In this document: positions 839-60,686 of the stretch, in pieces
How positions within the stretch are numbered: position 1 is the first letter of the stretch
Layout: the number at the start of each line of letters is the position of its first letter
Assembly (NCBI GenBank): GCA_963795085.1
Contig: CAWCFX010000002.1
Span: 32,001-96,000 of the forward strand
From: an uncultured Gemmatimonadales bacterium
Lineage (GTDB): Bacteria > Gemmatimonadota > Gemmatimonadetes > Gemmatimonadales > GWC2-71-9
Direction of reading: 5' to 3'
Length of the DNA stretch: 64,000 nt
Notes under the pieces: generated by a model
Seen by the model: the letters and a program-made list of their open reading frames with translations, nothing else
Databases searched by the model: none
Told to the model about the DNA's origin: nothing
Made by a program: the position numbers and the translations under genes

Positions 839-2295
839 CGGAACACCAGGTCGGTGAAGGCGTACTGGCCGTTGCGTTCGATGTGGACCCGGATCGGCTG
901 CCGGGGCGGCGCCGCGTCGAACAGCTCGCCCACCTGCTCGGCCCGGCGGATCATGGCGCGGTTGACCGCGATGATCACGTCGCCGCTCATGAGCCCGGTG
1001 GCCTGGGCGATCGGGGGCGTGATGCGGAAAATCAGGGCGCCCTGGTCGCTCCGGAGGCCCCGCTCGGCCTGGACCGCGGGGGTGATGGTGATGAGCTCAA
1101 TGCCGCGAAGCACGCTCACTTTCTCCGAGGTGACCGTGGGCAGGTCGCCGCTGATGAGCAGCCGTTCCTCGGTACTGGTGCCGGAGCGGACCCGGATCCG
1201 GATGGAGTCCCCCACCCGGAGGTCCAGCTTGGTGGCCTCCCAGTCGAGGAAGTTCCGGAGCCGGCGGCCGTTGGCTTCGATCAGCACGTCGCGAGGCTTG
1301 ATGCCCCCCCGGTCGGCCGGGCCGCCGGGGGCCACCGCGGTCACCACCACCCCGCCCTGGGTCTTCCAGTCCTGCATGCTCTCCGCGCCGGCGACGTCCA
1401 GCCCCACCCAGGCCCGCCGGATGGCGCCGTGCTGGACGATTTCTTCCGCGATCCGCATCGCGCGCTCGATCGGAATGGCGAACCCCAGCCCCACCGACCC
1501 TCCGCTCTGGGAGAAGATGGAGGAGTTGACGCCGATGACCTCGCCCAGCGAATTGGCGAGGGGGCCGCCCGAATTGCCGGGGTTGATGGCGGCGTCGGTC
1601 TGGATCATGTCGAGGTAGAGCCCGGCCTGCTCCCGGCCCGGCAGGATGTTCCGGCCCACCGCGCTGACCACGCCGGCGGTGACGGTCGGCTCGGCGTTGC
1701 CGAGCAGGAACGCGAACGGGTTGCCGAGGGCCACGACCCACTCGCCGATCAGCAGGTCCCCGGTGCGCCCGACGCGGACGGTGGGGAGCCCGGTTCGCTC
1801 CACCTTGAGCACCGCGATGTCGGTGATCGGGTCTTCGCCCAGCACCCGCGCGGGGAGGTCGGTCCCGTCGCTCAGGGTCACCACGACCCGCTCCGCCCCG
1901 CCGACCACGTGCTGGTTGGTGATGATGGTGCCGTTGGACTGGACGATGAACCCGGTCCCGCTCACCGGGACCAGCTGTTCCCGCCCCTGGGGGACGAAGA
2001 ACAGGTCGAACATGGACGGGGACGAGACCCGCCGGCGGGAGGTGGCGCTGACGGAGACGACCGCGGGGCCGACCCGGGTGGCCGCATCCACGATGGCGGT
2101 GCGCCGGGAGGTGTCGAGGGCGGCGTTGCGTTCGGCGGTCTGGGTTGAGGCGTCGGCGAAGGGGACCAGGCCGGCCTCGGATCGGTCGCTCCTGCAGGCG
2201 GTGGCGAGCAGGAGGAGGACGAGCGCACCCAGCGCACAGCGCTGGTCGTAGCCGCGGCCCCCCCGTTTTGCTGTGCCGCCTGTTCTACCGTTCAT
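835..2295 (-). CDS. HtrA/DegP-family serine protease with two PDZ domains, probable lipoprotein
   Basis: TNQHVV, DIAVLK, IQTDAAINPGNSGGPL triad motifs; lipobox-like LLATAC; exact start uncertain. Confidence 0.93.
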   Translation of the reverse strand: MNGRTGGTAKRGGRGYDQRCALGALVLLLLATACRSDRSEAGLVPFADASTQTAERNAALDTSRRTAIVDAATRVGPAVVSVSATSRRRVSSPSMFDLFFVPQGREQLVPVSGTGFIVQSNGTIITNQHVVGGAERVVVTLSDGTDLPARVLGEDPITDIAVLKVERTGLPTVRVGRTGDLLIGEWVVALGNPFAFLLGNAEPTVTAGVVSAVGRNILPGREQAGLYLDMIQTDAAINPGNSGGPLANSLGEVIGVNSSIFSQSGGSVGLGFAIPIERAMRIAEEIVQHGAIRRAWVGLDVAGAESMQDWKTQGGVVVTAVAPGGPADRGGIKPRDVLIEANGRRLRNFLDWEATKLDLRVGDSIRIRVRSGTSTEERLLISGDLPTVTSEKVSVLRGIELITITPAVQAERGLRSDQGALIFRITPPIAQATGLMSGDVIIAVNRAMIRRAEQVGELFDAAPPRQPIRVHIERNGQYAFTDLVFR

Positions 2296-3073
2296 TCACA
2301 TCCTCGCGCTGGTCCACGAAACACGCTTCCGGATACTCGGCAGCGATGAAGTAGAGTCCCTGCGGCGGTGCGGGGGGACTGGTTTCGTCGTTGTCCGAGC
2401 GGGCCAGCAGCCGCTCCATATCCTCCACCGGCCGGCGTGCGAGCCCGATGTCCACCATGGTGCCGACCAGGAACCGGACCATGTGGTGCAGGAACCGGTC
2501 GGCCTGGATCTCGAACTGGAGGCCGGCCTCGCCCCGATCAGTCCACCGGGCCCGCTGCACCTGGCAGCGGTAGTGCGGTTTCGCCGGGCCCTTCGCGGCG
2601 AACGCCTGGAACGCGTGCGTGCCGGCGAGCGTCGCGGCGGCCCGGTCGAGCCCGGCCCGGTCGAGGGGCCGGCCGAGCGCCCATTCGTACGGCCGCCGGA
2701 AGGGCGACGCGGAGCGCTCATCGGTCCCGACCAGGTACTGGTAGCGCCGCGCGGTGGCACTCTTCCGGGCATGAAACCCGGGGGCCATCTCGTGGATCCG
2801 CTCGACCCAGCAATCCGGGGGGAGCAGGGCATTGAGCCCCCGCCGGAGCGCCGCCCCGGCCCACTTCGGGGGAACCGTCAGGCTGACGCCCATCCCCAGG
2901 GCGTGGACGCCGGCATCGGTCCGGCCGGCGGCGTGCACCGGAATCCGGTCGCCGTTGAGCCGGGCCAGGGCGGCTTCGAACTCGCCCTGCACCGAGCGCC
3001 CGGCCTTCTGGCGCTGCCATCCCACGAACTCGCTGCCGTCAAAATGCAGAATCGCGAGAAAGGTTCGGCTCAC
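2285..3073 (-). CDS. truA: tRNA pseudouridine(38-40) synthase
   Basis: FDGSEFVGWQRQ, AGRTDAGVHA, FHARKSA, FLHHMVR, APPQGLY; GTG 3073 (or TTG 3082) start. Confidence 0.96.
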   Translation of the reverse strand: MSRTFLAILHFDGSEFVGWQRQKAGRSVQGEFEAALARLNGDRIPVHAAGRTDAGVHALGMGVSLTVPPKWAGAALRRGLNALLPPDCWVERIHEMAPGFHARKSATARRYQYLVGTDERSASPFRRPYEWALGRPLDRAGLDRAAATLAGTHAFQAFAAKGPAKPHYRCQVQRARWTDRGEAGLQFEIQADRFLHHMVRFLVGTMVDIGLARRPVEDMERLLARSDNDETSPPAPPQGLYFIAAEYPEACFVDQREDVNER

Positions 3074-3119
3074 GTGCGGCAAAATAGCCGAATTGAGCGG
3101 GCATATGAAGGGTTGATAA

Positions 3120-3280
3120 GAACGGGGCGGTAGAACAAAGGGCGGGAGAACAGAGGCGGTAGAACAACGGGCGGGAGAACTGGGCGGGAGAACAGAGGCG
3201 GTAGGAAAAGGGCGAGAGAACTGGGCGGTAAAACAGAGGCGGTAGGAAAGGGCGGTAGGAAAAGGGCGGTAGAACAGGGT
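3120..3280 (+). repeat. Degenerate tandem array, about 11 units of 13-15 bp, GGCGG(T/G)AG(A/G)A(C/A)..; left arm flanking the four-helix-bundle gene
   Basis: Read directly: ggcggtagaacaaag ggcgggagaacaga ggcggtagaacaacg ... Confidence 0.9.
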
Positions 3281-3304
3281 TGGGTGGCCGGTGGGGGAGG
3301 CAAG

Positions 3305-3685
3305 CTACGGGTTTTCCGGCGTCGGGGTTATTGCCCTGGTCACGGCACGGCTGAGTTTCCACACCAGGCGACCGGCCCTGTCCCGCAGGAGATCCAGTCC
3401 GGCCCATTCATCTTCTGGCAAGTAGCCGAGGTCCCGGCCGAGCAACAGGCAGTACGACAGTTCCGAGGCCGACCCCAAGGCGATGTCCAGGAACCGGCGA
3501 AACTCCCGGGGGCCTCGCTTGGCGGAGCCCTCGGCAATGTTCATCGGAATCGAGTAGGCTGCCCGCCGTGCCTGCGAAGTCAGCTCAAACCGTTCACCCG
3601 GCGGCCAGGTCCCGGTTGCCCGATAGACGGCAAGGACCAACTGGTGGCTGACTTGCCACGCCCGAAAGCGTTGGTAGGGTAGCAT
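3305..3685 (-). CDS. Four helix bundle protein (23S rRNA intervening-sequence protein / Avd-like family)
   Basis: 126 aa: AWQVSHQLVLAVY..T..WPPGERFELTSQARRAAYSIPMNIAEG...EFRRFLDIALGSASEL, the family signature. Confidence 0.92.
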   Translation of the reverse strand: MLPYQRFRAWQVSHQLVLAVYRATGTWPPGERFELTSQARRAAYSIPMNIAEGSAKRGPREFRRFLDIALGSASELSYCLLLGRDLGYLPEDEWAGLDLLRDRAGRLVWKLSRAVTRAITPTPENP

Positions 3686-3766
3686 GTTGCCAACCTGGCG
3701 ACGGAGCGTCAACCCACTCACAAACTCACCCACCACAACGAGTTGGAGCAGCTCCACCCGGCTCAG

Positions 3767-3943
3767 CTTACCGCCCTTTTCCCGCCCGCTATTCTCCCGC
3801 CCGGAGTTTCTCCCGCCCTGTTTTACTGCCCTCTGTTCTACCGCCCGTTGTTCTCCCGCCCTGTTTTACCGCCCCCTGTTCTCCCGCCCTGTCTTACCGC
3901 CCTCTGTTCTCCCGCCCGTCGTCCTCCCGCCCCTTTTCCTACC
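3767..3943 (-). repeat. Same 13-15 bp array in inverted orientation (about 12 units, TTCTACCGCCC / TTCTCCCGCCC); right arm
   Basis: Reverse complement of the 3120-3280 units. Confidence 0.9.
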
Positions 3944-3958
3944 TCTATGCATCAGCCC

Positions 3959-4005
3959 TTGCCCTTCGGTGCACTTTCGGGTAATATGGTTCGGCTTCCC
4001 TTCGG
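3959..4005 (+). promoter_or_regulatory. Putative sigma70 promoter of lexA (TTGCCC-N17-TAATAT) overlapped by two TTCGG-N6-TTCGG direct-repeat boxes (candidate SOS boxes)
   Basis: -35 at 3959-3964, -10 at 3982-3987; TTCGG at 3965, 3976, 3990 and 4001. Confidence 0.6.
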
Positions 4006-4024
4006 TCACCCCCGGGAGACAACC

Positions 4025-4633
4025 ATGCCGCTTACCAAGCGCCAGAGTGAGATCCTCGCCTACCTCCAGGACTACATCAGAGATCACAGCTACGCGCCCA
4101 GTTTCGAGGACATCGCGGAGCATTTCGAGTTCCAGTCGCTGGCCACGGTGCACGAGCACCTGACCAACCTGGAGCGCAAGGGCTATATCCACCGCACCCA
4201 TAATGAAAGCCGGTCGATCGAGGTGCTGCCGCCCAAGGGGCAGGCGGGTGCCACCGAGATCCCCATCCTGGGCAAGGTCGCCGCGGGTACCCCCATCGAG
4301 TCCCTGATGCATGAAGAGACCCTGGCGGTGCCGGACCAGATCCTGCCCCGGCGAGGTCCCAATTACGCCCTCAAGGTCCGGGGCTCGTCCATGATCGACG
4401 AGCATATCATCGATGGCGACTATGTCGTGGTCCATGGCCAGAACGCGGCCGAAAACGGAGAAATGGTCATCGCGCTGGTGAACGGGAGCGAGGCCACCGT
4501 TAAGAAGTTCTTCCGGGAACCCGGCGGCTGGATCCGGCTGCAGCCGGCCAACGAAACCATGCAGCCCATGCGCTTCCAGGAACGGGACGTGCTGATCCAG
4601 GGAGTGGTGGTGGGGGTGATCCGGAAGTACTGA
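4025..4633 (+). CDS. lexA: SOS repressor LexA
   Basis: MPLTKRQSEIL..YAPSFEDIA winged HTH; VAAG cleavage site; GSSM catalytic Ser; TVKK catalytic Lys; GGAG RBS. Confidence 0.97.
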   Translation: MPLTKRQSEILAYLQDYIRDHSYAPSFEDIAEHFEFQSLATVHEHLTNLERKGYIHRTHNESRSIEVLPPKGQAGATEIPILGKVAAGTPIESLMHEETLAVPDQILPRRGPNYALKVRGSSMIDEHIIDGDYVVVHGQNAAENGEMVIALVNGSEATVKKFFREPGGWIRLQPANETMQPMRFQERDVLIQGVVVGVIRKY

Positions 4634-4645
4634 CGGGCTCTAAGA

Positions 4646-4829
4646 CGAGGGCGGGAGAAGATGGCGGTAAGAATAGGGCGGTAGGAATAGGGCGGTAGGA
4701 CAAGGGGGCGGGAGGTCGGACCGGGAGAACAAGGATGTACCCGTTCCACGGCCCTCCTTTACCGCCCTCCTTTACCGCCCTCCTTTACCGCCCGTCGTTC
4801 TCCCGCCCTTTGTTCTACCGCCCTGTTCC
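4646..4829. repeat. Inverted pair of the same GGCGGTAG arrays (4646-4733 / 4751-4829) with a short spacer and no gene
   Basis: gggcggtaggaatag... followed by ...cctcctttaccgccc...gttctaccgccctgtt. Confidence 0.85.
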
Positions 4830-4868: not shown

Positions 4869-5513
4869 ATGACGGAAACCAAGATCTGCGGCATCACCGC
4901 GGCCGAGGATGCGGTCACGGCGGTGGCCGCCGGGGCATCCTACCTCGGGGTGGTGTTTACACCCGGGGCCCGGCGGGTGGAGCCCGCGTTGGCCCGGGAC
5001 ATCGTCCTCGCCGCGGGGCAGACGCCGGTGATCGGGGTCTTTGCCGGCCGTCTCCGGGTCAGCGAGATCCTGGATATCACTGCGGCGGCTGGTTTCGCCG
5101 GCATGCAACTGGCGCCGCCCCACTCGACCGCCGATGCCCGGCGAATCCGCGCCATGGGATACCTGGTCTGGCGGAGCATGCCACTCGAGTCCGACCGGGA
5201 TCTTGCCTGGTTGGCCGGCGTACGGGAGGCCGCCAGTGCCGTGGTGGTCGGTCCCCCGCCTCGGCATGGTGTTGGCGGAAACCCGGTCTTGTTACCTTTA
5301 GAACTGGCGCGGGAGGCGCGCGCCCACCTTCCCGGTCACCAGATGGTTCTTACCGGCGGACTCACGCCCCACAACGTGGGGAACGCGATTGCCGAAGTGC
5401 GGCCCGACATTGTCGAACTGGCCCTTGGCGACCCAACCCGAGCCGGCAGCACCGACGCCGGCCGAATTCAGCAATTCATGGAGGCAGTGATTGCGTCTTA
5501 CGCGCCACGCTGA
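4869..5513 (+). CDS. Phosphoribosylanthranilate isomerase-like protein (divergent TrpF)
   Basis: TKICGIT, GASYLGVVF, LTGGLTPHNV; several C-terminal active-site motifs altered. Confidence 0.75.
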   Translation: MTETKICGITAAEDAVTAVAAGASYLGVVFTPGARRVEPALARDIVLAAGQTPVIGVFAGRLRVSEILDITAAAGFAGMQLAPPHSTADARRIRAMGYLVWRSMPLESDRDLAWLAGVREAASAVVVGPPPRHGVGGNPVLLPLELAREARAHLPGHQMVLTGGLTPHNVGNAIAEVRPDIVELALGDPTRAGSTDAGRIQQFMEAVIASYAPR

Positions 5514-10831: not shown

Positions 10832-11342
10832 ACCGAAGGGGCAAGAGGGAAGGGCGGCTGGGCCGGGCGAATCCGGAAATCCGCCGAGCCCGGTTCGCGC
10901 CTACCTGGCCCTGGGGAGCAACCTCGGCGACCGGGCGGCCCACCTGGCGTTCGCGCGCCACGAGCTGGGACTCCTGCCCGGCTCCCGGATCGTGGCGAGT
11001 TCCGCGGTGGAAGAGACGGCACCATTGGGCGGCAGGGTGCAGCCGCCCTATCTTAATCAGATGGTGCTGCTGGAGACCGGCCTGTCCCCCCGGCAGTTGC
11101 TCGATGCCTGCCTCGCCATCGAGGACGCGGCCGGCCGGATCCGGCGCGAAGCCTGGGCGTCGCGCACCCTCGACATTGACATCGTGCGCTATGGGGACGA
11201 GACCATCCGGGAGCCGGGACTGGTCGTTCCGCATCCCGGATTCGCCGAGCGGGAGTTCTGGCAGCGGGAGCTCGCTGAAATCGAACGGGCCCTGAATGCC
11301 GGCTCACTGGCCCACTGGCCCACTGACCCACTGACCCACTGA
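10818..11342 (+). CDS. folK: 2-amino-4-hydroxy-6-hydroxymethyldihydropteridine diphosphokinase
   Basis: [27 protein letters not shown]; start uncertain (GTG 10818); C-terminal tail is encoded by the 8-bp repeat. Confidence 0.92.
11303..11342 (+). repeat. 8-bp tandem repeat CCCACTG(A/G), 5 units, ending at the folK stop and abutting the panB ATG
   Basis: ctcactgg cccactgg cccactga cccactga cccactga. Confidence 0.85.
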
Positions 11343-14052: not shown

Positions 14053-14092
14053 AGTGAGAAAGTGGGTCAGTGGGTCAGTGGGTCAGTGGGTC
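14053..14092 (+). repeat. 8-bp tandem repeat AGTGGGTC x4 plus one variant, directly after the LytR-C stop
   Basis: Read directly. Confidence 0.9.
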
Positions 14093-14152
14093 AAAGCGAA
14101 GAGGCCCGTGGGATGCTTCCGCAGCCGCCAACCTCACGTTAACCGTTGGATT

Positions 14153-14222
14153 CCCACTGTCCCACTGTCCCACTGTCCCACTGTCCCACTGTCCCACTGT
14201 CCCACTGTCCCACTGTCCCACT
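14153..14222 (-). repeat. 8-bp tandem repeat CCCACTGT x8 plus a partial unit, directly after the glycerate kinase stop; inverted relative to 14053-14092
   Basis: Read directly. Confidence 0.95.
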
Positions 14223-22452: not shown

Positions 22453-22480
22453 GTCGTGCCCCCTGGATGATCAGATCAAA

Positions 22481-22552
22481 TTCCCTCAATTCCCTCAATT
22501 CCCTCAATTCCCTCAATTCCCTCATTTCCCTCAATTCCCTCAATTCCCTCAA
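22481..22552 (-). repeat. 9-bp tandem repeat TTCCCTCAA x8 abutting the GMC oxidoreductase stop
   Basis: Read directly; one unit is TTCCCTCAT. Confidence 0.95.
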
Positions 22553-24271
22553 TTACAAAGCTCCCGCCCGCCGCTGTTCGATGATGTACTCGCTGGTGCG
22601 CATGGAGAGCGCCAGGATGGTCCACGTCGGGTTCTTGTCCGCCTGGGATACGAACGGTCCGCCGTCCGCCACGAACAGATTTTTCACGTCGTGGGCCTGG
22701 CAATGCCGGTTGAGGACGGAGGTCACCGGGTCGTTGCCCATCCGGGTGACCCCCAGCTCGTGGATGATGCTGCCTCCGTTCGCGATGCCGTACCCGTTGT
22801 CCGCGCTTGGCATGGGGGAGAAGACCTGCCCGCCCATCTCGGCAATCAGGGAGCGAAACGTCTCCTGCATGTGCTTGACCTGCCGGTATTCGTGGTCAGT
22901 CCATTTCCAGGTGAAGCGGAGCACCGGGATGCCCCAGCGGTCCAGGACCTTGGGGTCGATCTCGCAGTAGGAGTCGGCGTTGGGAACCATCTCGCCGCGG
23001 CCGGAGAATCCCACGGTCGCGCCGTAGTAACGGCGATACTGGTCTTTGAGGGACTTTCCGTAGCCGCCGCCCTCGGGGTAGCGGTGAATGCCGCCCATGA
23101 AGCCGTAGGCCGGCGGATGGAGCCCGCCCCAGATCTCGACGTGATAGCCTCGCGGGAAATCGAGCGTCTTGTTGTCCAGCCACCAGGGCATGTACAGGTG
23201 CCCGCCCCCGGTGCCGTCCTCGTTGTGGGGAACATGGTCCATCAGTTTGGGAATGAAACCCGCGACATCGGTCCCGGTCGTATCGGTGAGATAGCGGCCC
23301 ACCGTCCCGCTGGAGTTGGCAAGCCCCTGGGGAAACCGGCCTGACTTCGAGTTGAGCAGCAGCCGGGCGGATTCGCAGGCGCTGGCGGCCAGCACCACGA
23401 TGCGAGCCTGCACGTGGAGGTCCTGTCCGGTCGTCTTGTCGATATAGTTGACCCCGGTGGCCAGGCCATCGGGGCCGGTGGTCACCTCCCGCGCCATCGC
23501 GTTGGTCACGAGGGTGAGCTTGCCGGTCTCCCGGGCCGGGAGGATCAGGACGTTCCCGGAGGAAAAATTGGAATTGGTCCGGCACCCTCGCCCACACTGG
23601 CCGCAATAGTGGCACGCGGGCCGCCCGTTGTGGGGCCGGGTCAGAATGGACAGCCGGGAGGGAATGCAGGTGACCCGCATCTTGTCGGCCGCCTGCTTGA
23701 CCATGAGCTCGTAGCAGCGGGGCCGGGGGGCCGGCAGGAAGTTGCCGTCGGGCTCGTTGGGGAGGCCTTCCCGGCTGCCATAGATGCCCACCAGGTCGTC
23801 CACCCGGTCGTAGTAGGGCTTGAGATCGTCATAGCTGATGGGCCAGTCGTCGCCCAGGCCGTCCAGGCTCTTGCGGCGAAAGTCGTTGGGACCGAAGCGG
23901 AGCGAAATCCGGCCCCAGTGATTGGTCCGTCCCCCCAGCATCCGTACCCGGAACCAGTCAAACCGGGTGCCCGGCGCCCGGGTGTAGGGTTCCCCCTTGA
24001 GCGACCAGCCGCCGAGGCCGGCGTCGAACTCTCCGAAGTTGCGTTCCGGCGTGGACGCGCCGCGCCGGGGCGAGTCGTACGGCCAGGTGAGCATCGCGGA
24101 ATCGGTGGCGTTGTCCCACATGACGCCGGCCTCGAGCATGACCACTTCGGCGCCCGCGTCGGTGAGCATCTTCGCGGCCATCCCGCCGCCGGCACCGGAG
24201 CCGACGATGCAGACGTCATAGACCTTGCTATGGGAAGCTCCGGGCATCACGGGTCCTCGTGGCGGTGGCAT
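22553..24271 (-). CDS. GMC family FAD oxidoreductase (glycoside 3-dehydrogenase-like) 1
   Basis: IVGSGAGG, GGRTNHWGR, CHYCGQCGRGC, HELG..RMG, NPTWT. Confidence 0.9.
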   Translation of the reverse strand: MPPPRGPVMPGASHSKVYDVCIVGSGAGGGMAAKMLTDAGAEVVMLEAGVMWDNATDSAMLTWPYDSPRRGASTPERNFGEFDAGLGGWSLKGEPYTRAPGTRFDWFRVRMLGGRTNHWGRISLRFGPNDFRRKSLDGLGDDWPISYDDLKPYYDRVDDLVGIYGSREGLPNEPDGNFLPAPRPRCYELMVKQAADKMRVTCIPSRLSILTRPHNGRPACHYCGQCGRGCRTNSNFSSGNVLILPARETGKLTLVTNAMAREVTTGPDGLATGVNYIDKTTGQDLHVQARIVVLAASACESARLLLNSKSGRFPQGLANSSGTVGRYLTDTTGTDVAGFIPKLMDHVPHNEDGTGGGHLYMPWWLDNKTLDFPRGYHVEIWGGLHPPAYGFMGGIHRYPEGGGYGKSLKDQYRRYYGATVGFSGRGEMVPNADSYCEIDPKVLDRWGIPVLRFTWKWTDHEYRQVKHMQETFRSLIAEMGGQVFSPMPSADNGYGIANGGSIIHELGVTRMGNDPVTSVLNRHCQAHDVKNLFVADGGPFVSQADKNPTWTILALSMRTSEYIIEQRRAGAL

Positions 24272-25693: not shown

Positions 25694-25796
25694 GCACTCT
25701 GCAGTCTGCACTCTGCACTCGTACTCTGCACTCTGTACTCTGCACTCTGTACTCTATACTAGTACTCTGTACTCTGTACTCTGCACTCTGCACTCA
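25694..25796 (-). repeat. 7-bp tandem repeat (AGTGCAG/AGTACAG on the minus strand), about 14 degenerate units from the GMC2 stop
   Basis: gcactct/gtactct units read directly. Confidence 0.92.
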
Positions 25797-51192: not shown

Positions 51193-51194
<2 letters not shown>

Positions 51195-51295
51195 TGCAGA
51201 GTGCAGAGTGCGGAGTGCGGAGTGCAGAGTGCAGAGTGCAGAGTGCAGAGTGCAGAGTGCAGAGTGCAGAGTGCAGGGTGCCGCGTGCCGCGTGC
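51193..51295 (+). repeat. 7-bp tandem repeat AGTGC(A/G)G x12 plus 3 degenerate units, starting inside the mutase stop codon
   Basis: Read directly. Confidence 0.95.
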
Positions 51296-60096: not shown

Positions 60097-60224
60097 TTCT
60101 CTCAATTCCCTCAATTCCCACATTCCCTCAATTCCCACATTCCCTCAATTCCCACATTCCCTCAATTCCCACATTCCCTCAATTCCCACATTCCCTCAAT
60201 TCCCACATTCCCTCAATTCCCACA
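60097..60224 (-). repeat. 17-bp tandem repeat TTCCCTCAATTCCCACA x7 perfect (60106-60224) plus one 9-bp variant
   Basis: Read directly; contains the NTF2 gene stop. Confidence 0.95.
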
Positions 60225-60686
60225 CTCCGCCGCTGGCCTCCTGGTGTCCGCCAGCGCGATGATCTTCCATCCGCCGGAATCCCGCGCCAGCAGAATGGCG
60301 TCCACGCCACAATGGCTGAATCGCTCACCGATATAGAATCGATAGTCCGTCCAGACTGAGGCCAGGTTGTCGGAGATACTCACGGTGGTGTTTTGAAGCC
60401 GTTCGTCCAGGAGCTGGCCGGGCGCGGCGGTGCTGATCATGCCGATGAACGCCTCGACGGGCGTGGCCTCGACCGCCGGAGTGCCATTCCGGTTCCCGGT
60501 GCTGATCAGCCGCGCCCCTTCCGCGAAGATGGAACGAAATGCGGCGGTATCCCTCGCCCGCATGGCGTCGAACATCCGGGTGATGACGGCCCGGACCGCT
60601 GTGTCGTCCGCGGGCGGAGTGGCCTGCTGCGCGTGGGCCGGAACGGACAGCACCGCCAGCATGGCGATCGACGGCAGGACTTTCAT
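60213..60686 (-). CDS. Secreted NTF2/SnoaL-like family protein
   Basis: Signal peptide (PAHA); A.VW.DY.F....FSHCGVD...L......WKI. Confidence 0.82.
   Translation of the reverse strand: MKVLPSIAMLAVLSVPAHAQQATPPADDTAVRAVITRMFDAMRARDTAAFRSIFAEGARLISTGNRNGTPAVEATPVEAFIGMISTAAPGQLLDERLQNTTVSISDNLASVWTDYRFYIGERFSHCGVDAILLARDSGGWKIIALADTRRPAAECGN

Follow-up and report, generated by a model that had tools for sequence, protein, structure and literature searches.

The window, i.e., the whole stretch of 64,000 nucleotides analysed here, carries an intact gene of the four-helix-bundle family (4HB; TIGR02436 / PF05635) at positions 3305..3685 of the minus strand. Profiles, a predicted structure and Foldseek agree on this assignment. 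In HMM searches the 126-aa protein scores 99.7 bits against TIGR02436 (cut-off 24) and 104.4 bits against PF05635 (cut-off 33.8), the sole Pfam family on the flanked gene, and its predicted model (pLDDT 95) has four long helices. The best PDB match in Foldseek is XCC0516 (2GSC; E 3e-9, TM 0.89, rmsd 0.9), followed by BT_0352 and then by Avd of diversity-generating retroelements (DGR; 4DWL, 8UB7), with TM 0.74-0.76. An earlier sequence-only reading of the locus had proposed both the four-helix ORF and its kinship with Avd, and these data confirm both. Avd binds RNA, working on RNA in its own DGR system. PDB entries 2GSC and 2RLD hold five chains each, and, judging from these solved relatives, the window protein is probably a pentameric nucleic-acid-binding ring. 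No catalytic site is known for it, and a partner enzyme was not identified. Its nearest homologues belong to Gemmatimonadales records, so that the host is probably a member of this order; a phage collection gave no match to the protein and a plasmid collection gave 23 records, mostly cyanobacterial.

The gene lies between two tandem arrays of opposite orientation. The upstream arm (3768..3943, minus strand, 12 units) is purine-rich on the gene strand, and the downstream arm (3119..3279, minus strand, 11 units) is pyrimidine-rich and stops just short of the region upstream of truA; along the gene strand the order is purine arm, ORF, pyrimidine arm. TRF calls the arrays at 3119-3279 and about 3777-3940, and the split into units gives the numbers above, in agreement with the roughly 11 and 12 opposed units reported from the sequence alone. 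The unit has the core GGCGG(T/G)A(G/A) and is mostly 13-15 bp long (one unit has 11 bp and one has 16 bp). When the RNA of the cassette is folded, the arms pair as had been proposed (-455.6 kcal/mol, z -13 vs 20 shuffles), though not as a stem of about 160 bp: 160 is the length of an arm, and the duplex has only 125 pairs, with 17 bp in its longest unbroken helix. The inverted 7-mer score at the gene is 284, while the 99th percentile among 3042 genes of the same genome (hereafter G000) is 43. Arrays of the GGCGG-type window family number 22 in G000, 18 of them beyond the window's, and 0 in one triplet-shuffled genome. The armed cassette is not a product of chance. Rfam gave no match at gathering score between 2900 and 5000, only sub-threshold hairpin look-alikes. 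The signal for a consistent order of sub-units in the arms (F-type outer, B-type inner) was weak (10 before, 5 after, 17 neither), and a stricter version of the test gave 1 case. Four DNA read runs yielded short pieces over the locus and no informative junction; one contig has unit-sized indels in the downstream arm.

The spacer between the upstream arm and the ORF (3686..3767, minus strand) contains what is probably a leaderless promoter, whose -10-like hexamer (3697-3692) is weak and was recognised from the pattern of the homologues. Such a hexamer (YANNNT) lies 11-12 nt 5' of the start codon in 48/100 Gemmatimonadota 4HB genes, and the stricter TANNNT is at this position in 23/100 of them vs 154/1990 host genes. 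At the locus itself, a promoter/terminator scan gave none, with no consensus sigma-70 site. The distance between hexamer and start codon suggests that 4HB transcripts are leaderless, start inside the arms and leave out the purine arm. The statement that the purine arm precedes the ORF on its own transcript is correct for the order on the strand and doubtful for the transcript.

The architecture resembles the intervening sequence (IVS) of the 23S rRNA of Coxiella burnetii, described as an S23p ORF inside a 28-bp stem cut by RNase III, with tandem GACAGAT heptamers of variable copy number before the ORF (PMC4990558). Together with the strong predicted stem, this precedent would fit an RNA element whose arms are cut from the mRNA by RNase III. 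The stem of the window would form only on read-through RNA, and after the inversion of lexA (see below) no upstream gene reads in. We found no RNase III in G000, either with the PF00636 profile (0 matches) or by tblastn with E. coli rnc plus a local profile, for which Era controls were positive. RNase III is usually described as highly conserved. Among 61 Gemmatimonadales-like genomes, the enzyme (PF14622) was detected in one, on a 1.5-kb contig, while 8/14 control genomes were positive; a literature search found no statement on its rarity in this lineage. Since RNase III was found in 1/61 genomes of the order, the excision proposed in the sequence-only reading is not supported in this lineage, and we regard an IVS-like element cut out by RNase III as highly improbable.

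The reversed lexA

Beyond the cassette lies lexA (4025..4633, plus strand), whose orientation towards truA, trpF and the HEAT gene is opposite to that in relatives, and which has inverted arms of the same unit on both sides. Its stop codon is followed, with the first base 8 nt away, by a purine arm of 5 units (4641..4715, plus strand; TRF and unit split) and then by a pyrimidine arm of 5 units (4742..4824, plus strand; fold and unit split), before a trpF-like host gene (4869..5513, plus strand). These two arms form a gene-less inverted pair (4641-4824) with the unit of the window cassette and a fold z of -4.3. The outer 32 nt of the arm at 4742-4824 are the same as the outer end of the downstream arm of the cassette, with one base different. 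On the other side of the cassette, its downstream neighbour is the host gene truA (2285..3073, minus strand).

We compared this region with the 29 other lexA loci among the best 30 of 60 lexA matches (own locus included). Among these 29, truA lies 3' of lexA on the same strand at 25, trpF or the HEAT gene is directed away from lexA at 14, the gene order of the window occurs at none, and a 4HB gene is present at one, with another unit. This comparison of filled and empty loci, which the sequence-only reading had suggested, marks the cassette as a discrete piece of DNA. In the window, lexA is the only gene reversed, and its boundaries are the mutually inverted arms 3768-3943 and 4641-4715. With the inversion undone, the lexA stop is followed by the purine arm and then by the 4HB gene, its pyrimidine arm and truA, an order that agrees with the common layout. 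It appears from this order that lexA was inverted after the cassette had inserted, and the arm at 4641..4715 probably formed the outer end of the cassette's upstream arm until then. The location between truA and lexA, as first described, is the present position and a derived state. Another cassette (C6:720769-721071) has the opposite orientation to its counterpart in the congener G004 (L077/L195), between the same convergent genes; we infer that recombination between arms caused both flips.

The reversed segment includes lexA with its promoter (3932-4715), and the inversion could be fixed or switching. Different repeat elements lie at the lexA stop in G003, G004, G019 and G032 (L082, L085, L087 and L098), the one in G019 being another cassette, and this stop is an apparent insertion hot spot in these sequences. 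Upstream of lexA, four TTCGG words (3965-4005) are conserved in relatives and are a candidate LexA box of the lineage. Many relatives have trpC and trpD beside lexA and next to trpF, but neither gene was detected in G000 (93% complete), and the trpF kept without them is possibly a relic or repurposed.

Cassettes and arrays within and between genomes

The genome of the window (3.89 Mb in 6 contigs, 93% complete) has six intact PF05635 paralogues, five of which have inverted arms, each with a unit of its own (13-14, 8, 7, 17/9 and 7 nt). The sixth (C1:470491) is without arms, and CGATTGC, yet another heptamer, makes up the arms of a seventh copy that is broken. Six unit families are represented by 15-72 arrays each, with 273/276 arrays intergenic and 0-2 per family in one triplet shuffle; the motifs were picked after viewing the TRF output, and genes were called with our own caller. 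A motif-free comparison gives the same picture. When an array is matched to a cassette with which it shares at least 30% of its 6-mers, 154/325 gene-less TRF arrays of G000 match the cassettes of their own genome, and 33 match the best of the cassette sets of 24 other genomes. The 171/325 arrays left without assignment by this strict 6-mer test are, by eye, mostly variants of cassette units. In G004 (633 kb), 54/113 arrays match its own cassettes, 28 match G003 cassettes and 21 match G000 cassettes; in G038, 5/14 arrays match its own, tied with two relatives. Within a genome, arrays are specific to the units of the resident cassettes. G000 differs from the Xanthomonas, Nostoc and TAACTGA arrays treated below in that it combines several unit families, each of which corresponds to one of its 4HB paralogues. 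The window itself has gene-less arrays of other families at 11305-11342, 14061-14222, 22479-22554, 25694-25795, 51193-51295 and 60105-60228, most of which start at stops. Arrays with a period of 21-22 bp, unrelated to the 4HB units, lie at C1:426996-427740, C1:531591-531962, C1:876731-876934 and C6:744297-744594.

Three pattern tests on 61 genomes, whose counts include overlapping matches and the arms of cassettes, show how units and cassettes co-occur. The window core has 57 matches in G000, 17 in G032, 15 in G016, 6 in G004 and 2 in G003, all cassette-bearing, and, among genomes without the cassette, 21 in G005, 12 in G006, 2 in G009 and 1 each in G002 and G051. For GGCAC, genomes with the cassette have 79 (G058), 45 (G046), 26 (G044), 24 (G050) and 110 matches (G038, a related unit), and those without it have 29 (G056), 10 (G007) or 6 or fewer (five genomes). 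For TAGGG, the corresponding numbers are 43 (G038), 32 (G060), 22 (G044) and 7 (G046) with the cassette, and 12 (G032), 9 (G019), 8 (G058) and 1-2 (six genomes) without it. Every cassette-bearing genome had matches to its unit; the reverse fails in fragmented assemblies. Those of G005, G006, G056, G007 and (for TAGGG) G032, with arrays and no matching cassette, are fragmented, yet the gaps are real. The pair G040 and G060, of one genus, illustrates the association: the former has no 4HB gene and has 0 and 2 matches, and the latter, with only a TAGGG cassette, has 32 TAGGG and 0 GGCAC matches. The family was not found in 11/61 genomes of the order. Six genomes without 4HB have 4 arrays in the 400 kb sampled, and G000, G004 and G038 have 7.6-18.5 per 100 kb, while samples of 60 kb each gave 0 arrays in G043 (8 4HB genes), 0 in G044 (4 genes) and 1 in G024. 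Array density thus tracks the 4HB count only loosely, in samples of 20 kb that are thin.

Inverted arms are a recurrent feature of the family. We analysed 80 of the 150 listed PF05635 loci (219 in total) of 60 relatives, mostly high-scoring and off contig ends, and the best 80 loci each from a genome and a metagenome collection. With a strict test (one 6-mer present at least 3 times per flank, inverted, at loci with full flanks only), arms were found at 33/75, 21/68 and 27/63 4HB loci in the three samples vs 34/3042 ordinary genes, and the control for direct orientation gave 0/75, 3/68 and 0/63. The enrichment anticipated in the sequence-only reading is therefore 31-44 per 100 4HB genes against about 1 per 100. 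The period of the arms is 7 in 121/239 arms and 8 in 95/239, with a median of 4.3 units, and the arms in the clade of the window protein mostly share GGCGG(T/A). Similarity between proteins and similarity between arm units are correlated (Mantel r 0.33, permutation maximum 0.14; 84 of 163 proteins), a covariation that could come from physical linkage alone and does not show recognition. The cassettes occupy varied sites: the 35 loci of close homologues represent 25 different upstream contexts, as expected from the claim that they form a discrete cassette. The median dN/dS is 0.11 over the 89 unsaturated of 117 pairs (which are non-independent), a value indicating that the 4HB protein is under purifying selection.

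These associations could also arise if the 4HB protein had no part in the spread of the arrays, which would be due to slippage and gene conversion or to a RAYT, GxxExxY or DUF559 nuclease, the 4HB gene being cargo between inverted arms. The protein has no catalytic motif, arrays without a cassette occur in several genomes, and ordinary genes are also found between arms (e.g., an adk-like gene at C6:86760-87320 and a hydrolase-like gene at C6:748807-749382, both named by eye). Candidate enzymes are available as well. In G000, four matches are Y1/RAYT-like (the Y1 genes lie away from the cassette), four are GxxExxY and three are DUF559, and several of these genes have flanking repeats of their own (C1:1183064, C1:823891, C6:738791, C1:683383, C3:370563 and C4:546683). 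They could be a parallel set of small-gene-plus-repeat modules, and another enzyme could move all of them. Yet inverted arms are far rarer at ordinary genes (34/3042) than at 4HB genes under the same strict test, every lineage of 4HB genes retains a unit of its own, and the protein shows conservation. We therefore consider it unlikely that the gene is a mere passenger of its repeats.

Arrays at stop codons

The arrays are anchored at stop codons with a fixed polarity. In G000 the purine strand begins at most 20 nt from a stop codon of the same strand in 113/278 arrays, where random placement in the same gaps gives a mean of 34 and a maximum of 50; for the pyrimidine strand the number is 25 of 278. 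Convergent gaps are informative in this respect, since no promoter limits the position of the array there. A purine arm faces the stop at 45/45 such sites, and it does so within 20 nt at 40 (expected 23). In co-directional gaps, 65/142 arrays are near the stop vs 21.5 expected.

We considered whether the arrays supply the stop codon themselves. Four of the six units have no stop codon in any frame. Of 120 host genes, 18 have an orthologue in the fetched DNA of G004, and 15/18 of these end within 2 aa of it (3/18 are more than 2 aa shorter; other genes 254/326). This possibility was ruled out, and the stop codon is native, because four of six units are stopless and 15/18 gene ends agree. The same stops have in G004 no array or an array of another unit (at least 4 of 18). 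Units in register with the stop suggest that a telomerase-like priming may occur at stops.

A similar rule was reported for Xanthomonas by Rehm et al. 2015, whose GGGAATC arrays have the G-rich strand just past stops on the sense strand and form 70 inverted pairs in Xcc; their function is left unexplained in the account given there (PMC4692102). A single row of the supplementary table of that study puts the beginning of one array, repeat 15 (GGGAATC x4), 6 nt past the stop of bccP, with an overlap into the start of XCC0516, the best structural match of the window protein; the table lists no inverted partner for this array (PMC4692102). MacGregor 2015 described TAACTGA arrays, in an account that gives no mechanism and does not mention IVP (PMC4679880). 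Like these arrays of Xanthomonas and Nostoc and the TAACTGA arrays, those described here are intergenic and tandem, have the G-rich strand past stops and include many inverted pairs. The descriptions of the earlier arrays name no associated gene or mechanism (PMC4692102, PMC4679880).

Placement after stops would also suit a host regulon, in which the 4HB protein is a post-transcriptional regulator (TRAP/Hfq-like) with the arrays as candidate binding sites. Arrays would arise by slippage and be kept after stops to tune mRNA stability, Rho access or re-initiation, and the arms of the cassette would give autoregulation. TRAP and Hfq bind repeated sites, and Rho prefers C-rich RNA. A purine-first rule would keep C-rich, Rho-loading sequence off stop codons, the arm size is near the count expected for a pentamer (five chains in 2GSC and 2RLD), and the protein is under purifying selection. 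The Xanthomonas arrays are described as mostly transcribed and as stable in position between two species, although the same account found no regulatory role for them (PMC4692102). Against a regulon, units and sites turn over within the genus, the same stop having different units in G000 and G004, cassettes lie in many unrelated contexts, and the family was not detected in 11 of the 61 related genomes. Overall, we find regulation by the host improbable as the origin of this pattern.

We instead favour, with a probability of about one half, the reading that the window cassette is the loaded copy of a two-part element similar to REP/RAYT, with the 4HB protein as its unit-specific factor. This reading is based on the five armed paralogues among six, the match between arrays and cassettes of the same genome, the anchoring at stops, the conservation of the protein and the row on XCC0516. 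The gene of the protein lies between two opposed arrays of a short unit that is peculiar to the protein's lineage, and loaded cassettes and, far more often, gene-less copies with one or two arms are placed right after host stops, purine first. The 4HB protein would recognise its own unit, with about one unit per subunit (the median of 4.3 units per arm is near this), and read it on single-stranded RNA or on DNA exposed by transcription at gene ends. It may then recruit or license enzymes of the host, from recombination or repair, by which the array is written into the site. Once in place, the arms would serve homologous recombination, which would have inverted lexA at the window locus.

Known systems and a possible wider class

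The window cassette encodes a member of PF05635 and belongs to none of three known kinds of system, the rRNA IVS, the DGR and RAYT. With the Coxiella IVS it shares the protein family and an ORF in the loop of terminal inverted repeats. It differs in that it lies in intergenic DNA after the stop of a protein-coding gene, not inside an rRNA gene, in the length of its arms (about 160 nt vs a 28-bp stem), in the many gene-less copies across the genome and in the lack of a detected RNase III in the host lineage. Proteins of the window type are under purifying selection, whereas the ORF of the Coxiella IVS is described as expendable (PMC4990558).

The likeness to REPIN/RAYT systems is in organisation: a conserved single-copy gene, cognate flanking repeats, many non-autonomous extragenic copies and several families per genome are part of the published description of these systems (10.1101/2021.07.10.451892). 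The components differ, as a RAYT is an HUH (Y1) tyrosine transposase acting with short palindromes, whereas the window has an all-helical bundle and arms that are tandem arrays. With Avd of DGRs, reported as pentameric (PMC7826257, PMC10053308), the protein shares the fold, but the identity is 10-12%, and no reverse transcriptase, template repeat or variable repeat was identified here. Reverse transcriptase (PF00078, RVT_1) was not found in G000 (93% complete), G038, G044, G046 or G058 and is present in 8/61 genomes of the order. Retro-mobility with a resident reverse transcriptase was rejected on these counts. We looked for signs of an insertion sequence or MITE, such as a target-site duplication and fixed terminal inverted repeats, and found no alignable empty allele, the intergenic DNA of congeners being diverged. 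A literature search, mainly of open-access work, gave no link between the 4HB family and inverted tandem arms outside rRNA.

These observations bring together two open questions, the role of the very common PF05635 proteins outside rRNA and the origin of bacterial intergenic arrays of 7-8 nt, as posed by the reports on such arrays (PMC4692102, PMC4679880). The pairing of gene and unit names a specific candidate ligand for each protein, and binding to swapped units would probe this pairing directly. From the stop-codon rule one would expect targeting to be linked to the ends of genes, and two obvious mechanisms are removed by finding neither RNase III nor reverse transcriptase in G000. The arrays also appear to reshape genomes: two of them bound the inverted lexA, and another cassette has the opposite orientation in a congener. 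More speculatively, there may be a widespread class of mobile elements without an enzyme of their own, in which an Avd-like pentamer reads a lineage-specific unit of 7-17 nt and directs arrays to the stops of genes that are expressed, needing neither RNase III nor a reverse transcriptase. Such a class would be the source of the heptamer and octamer arrays of Xanthomonas, cyanobacteria, Bacteroidota and Gemmatimonadota, and the 23S rRNA IVS would be a special case that landed in rRNA. We hold this extension tentatively.

Among Bacteroidota-like, Bacillota and cyanobacterial 4HB loci, 57/90 have tandem repeats on both sides (orientation unscored), and in the Bacteroidota-like sample one of five genomes picked for GGGAAT arrays has a matching cassette (G381; 27/36 loci examined). 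One clear exception to inverted arms is the 4HB gene between cas6 and cas4 on a Pseudanabaena plasmid (L410; NZ_CP112875.1, 46268-46627), which has long heptamer arrays on both sides in direct orientation. On two plasmids of Nostoc PCC 7120 (L405 and L406), genes for an identical 4HB protein lie beside transposase genes (one annotated ISL3) and keep the downstream heptamer arm; these cassettes are possibly carried as cargo of insertion sequences.
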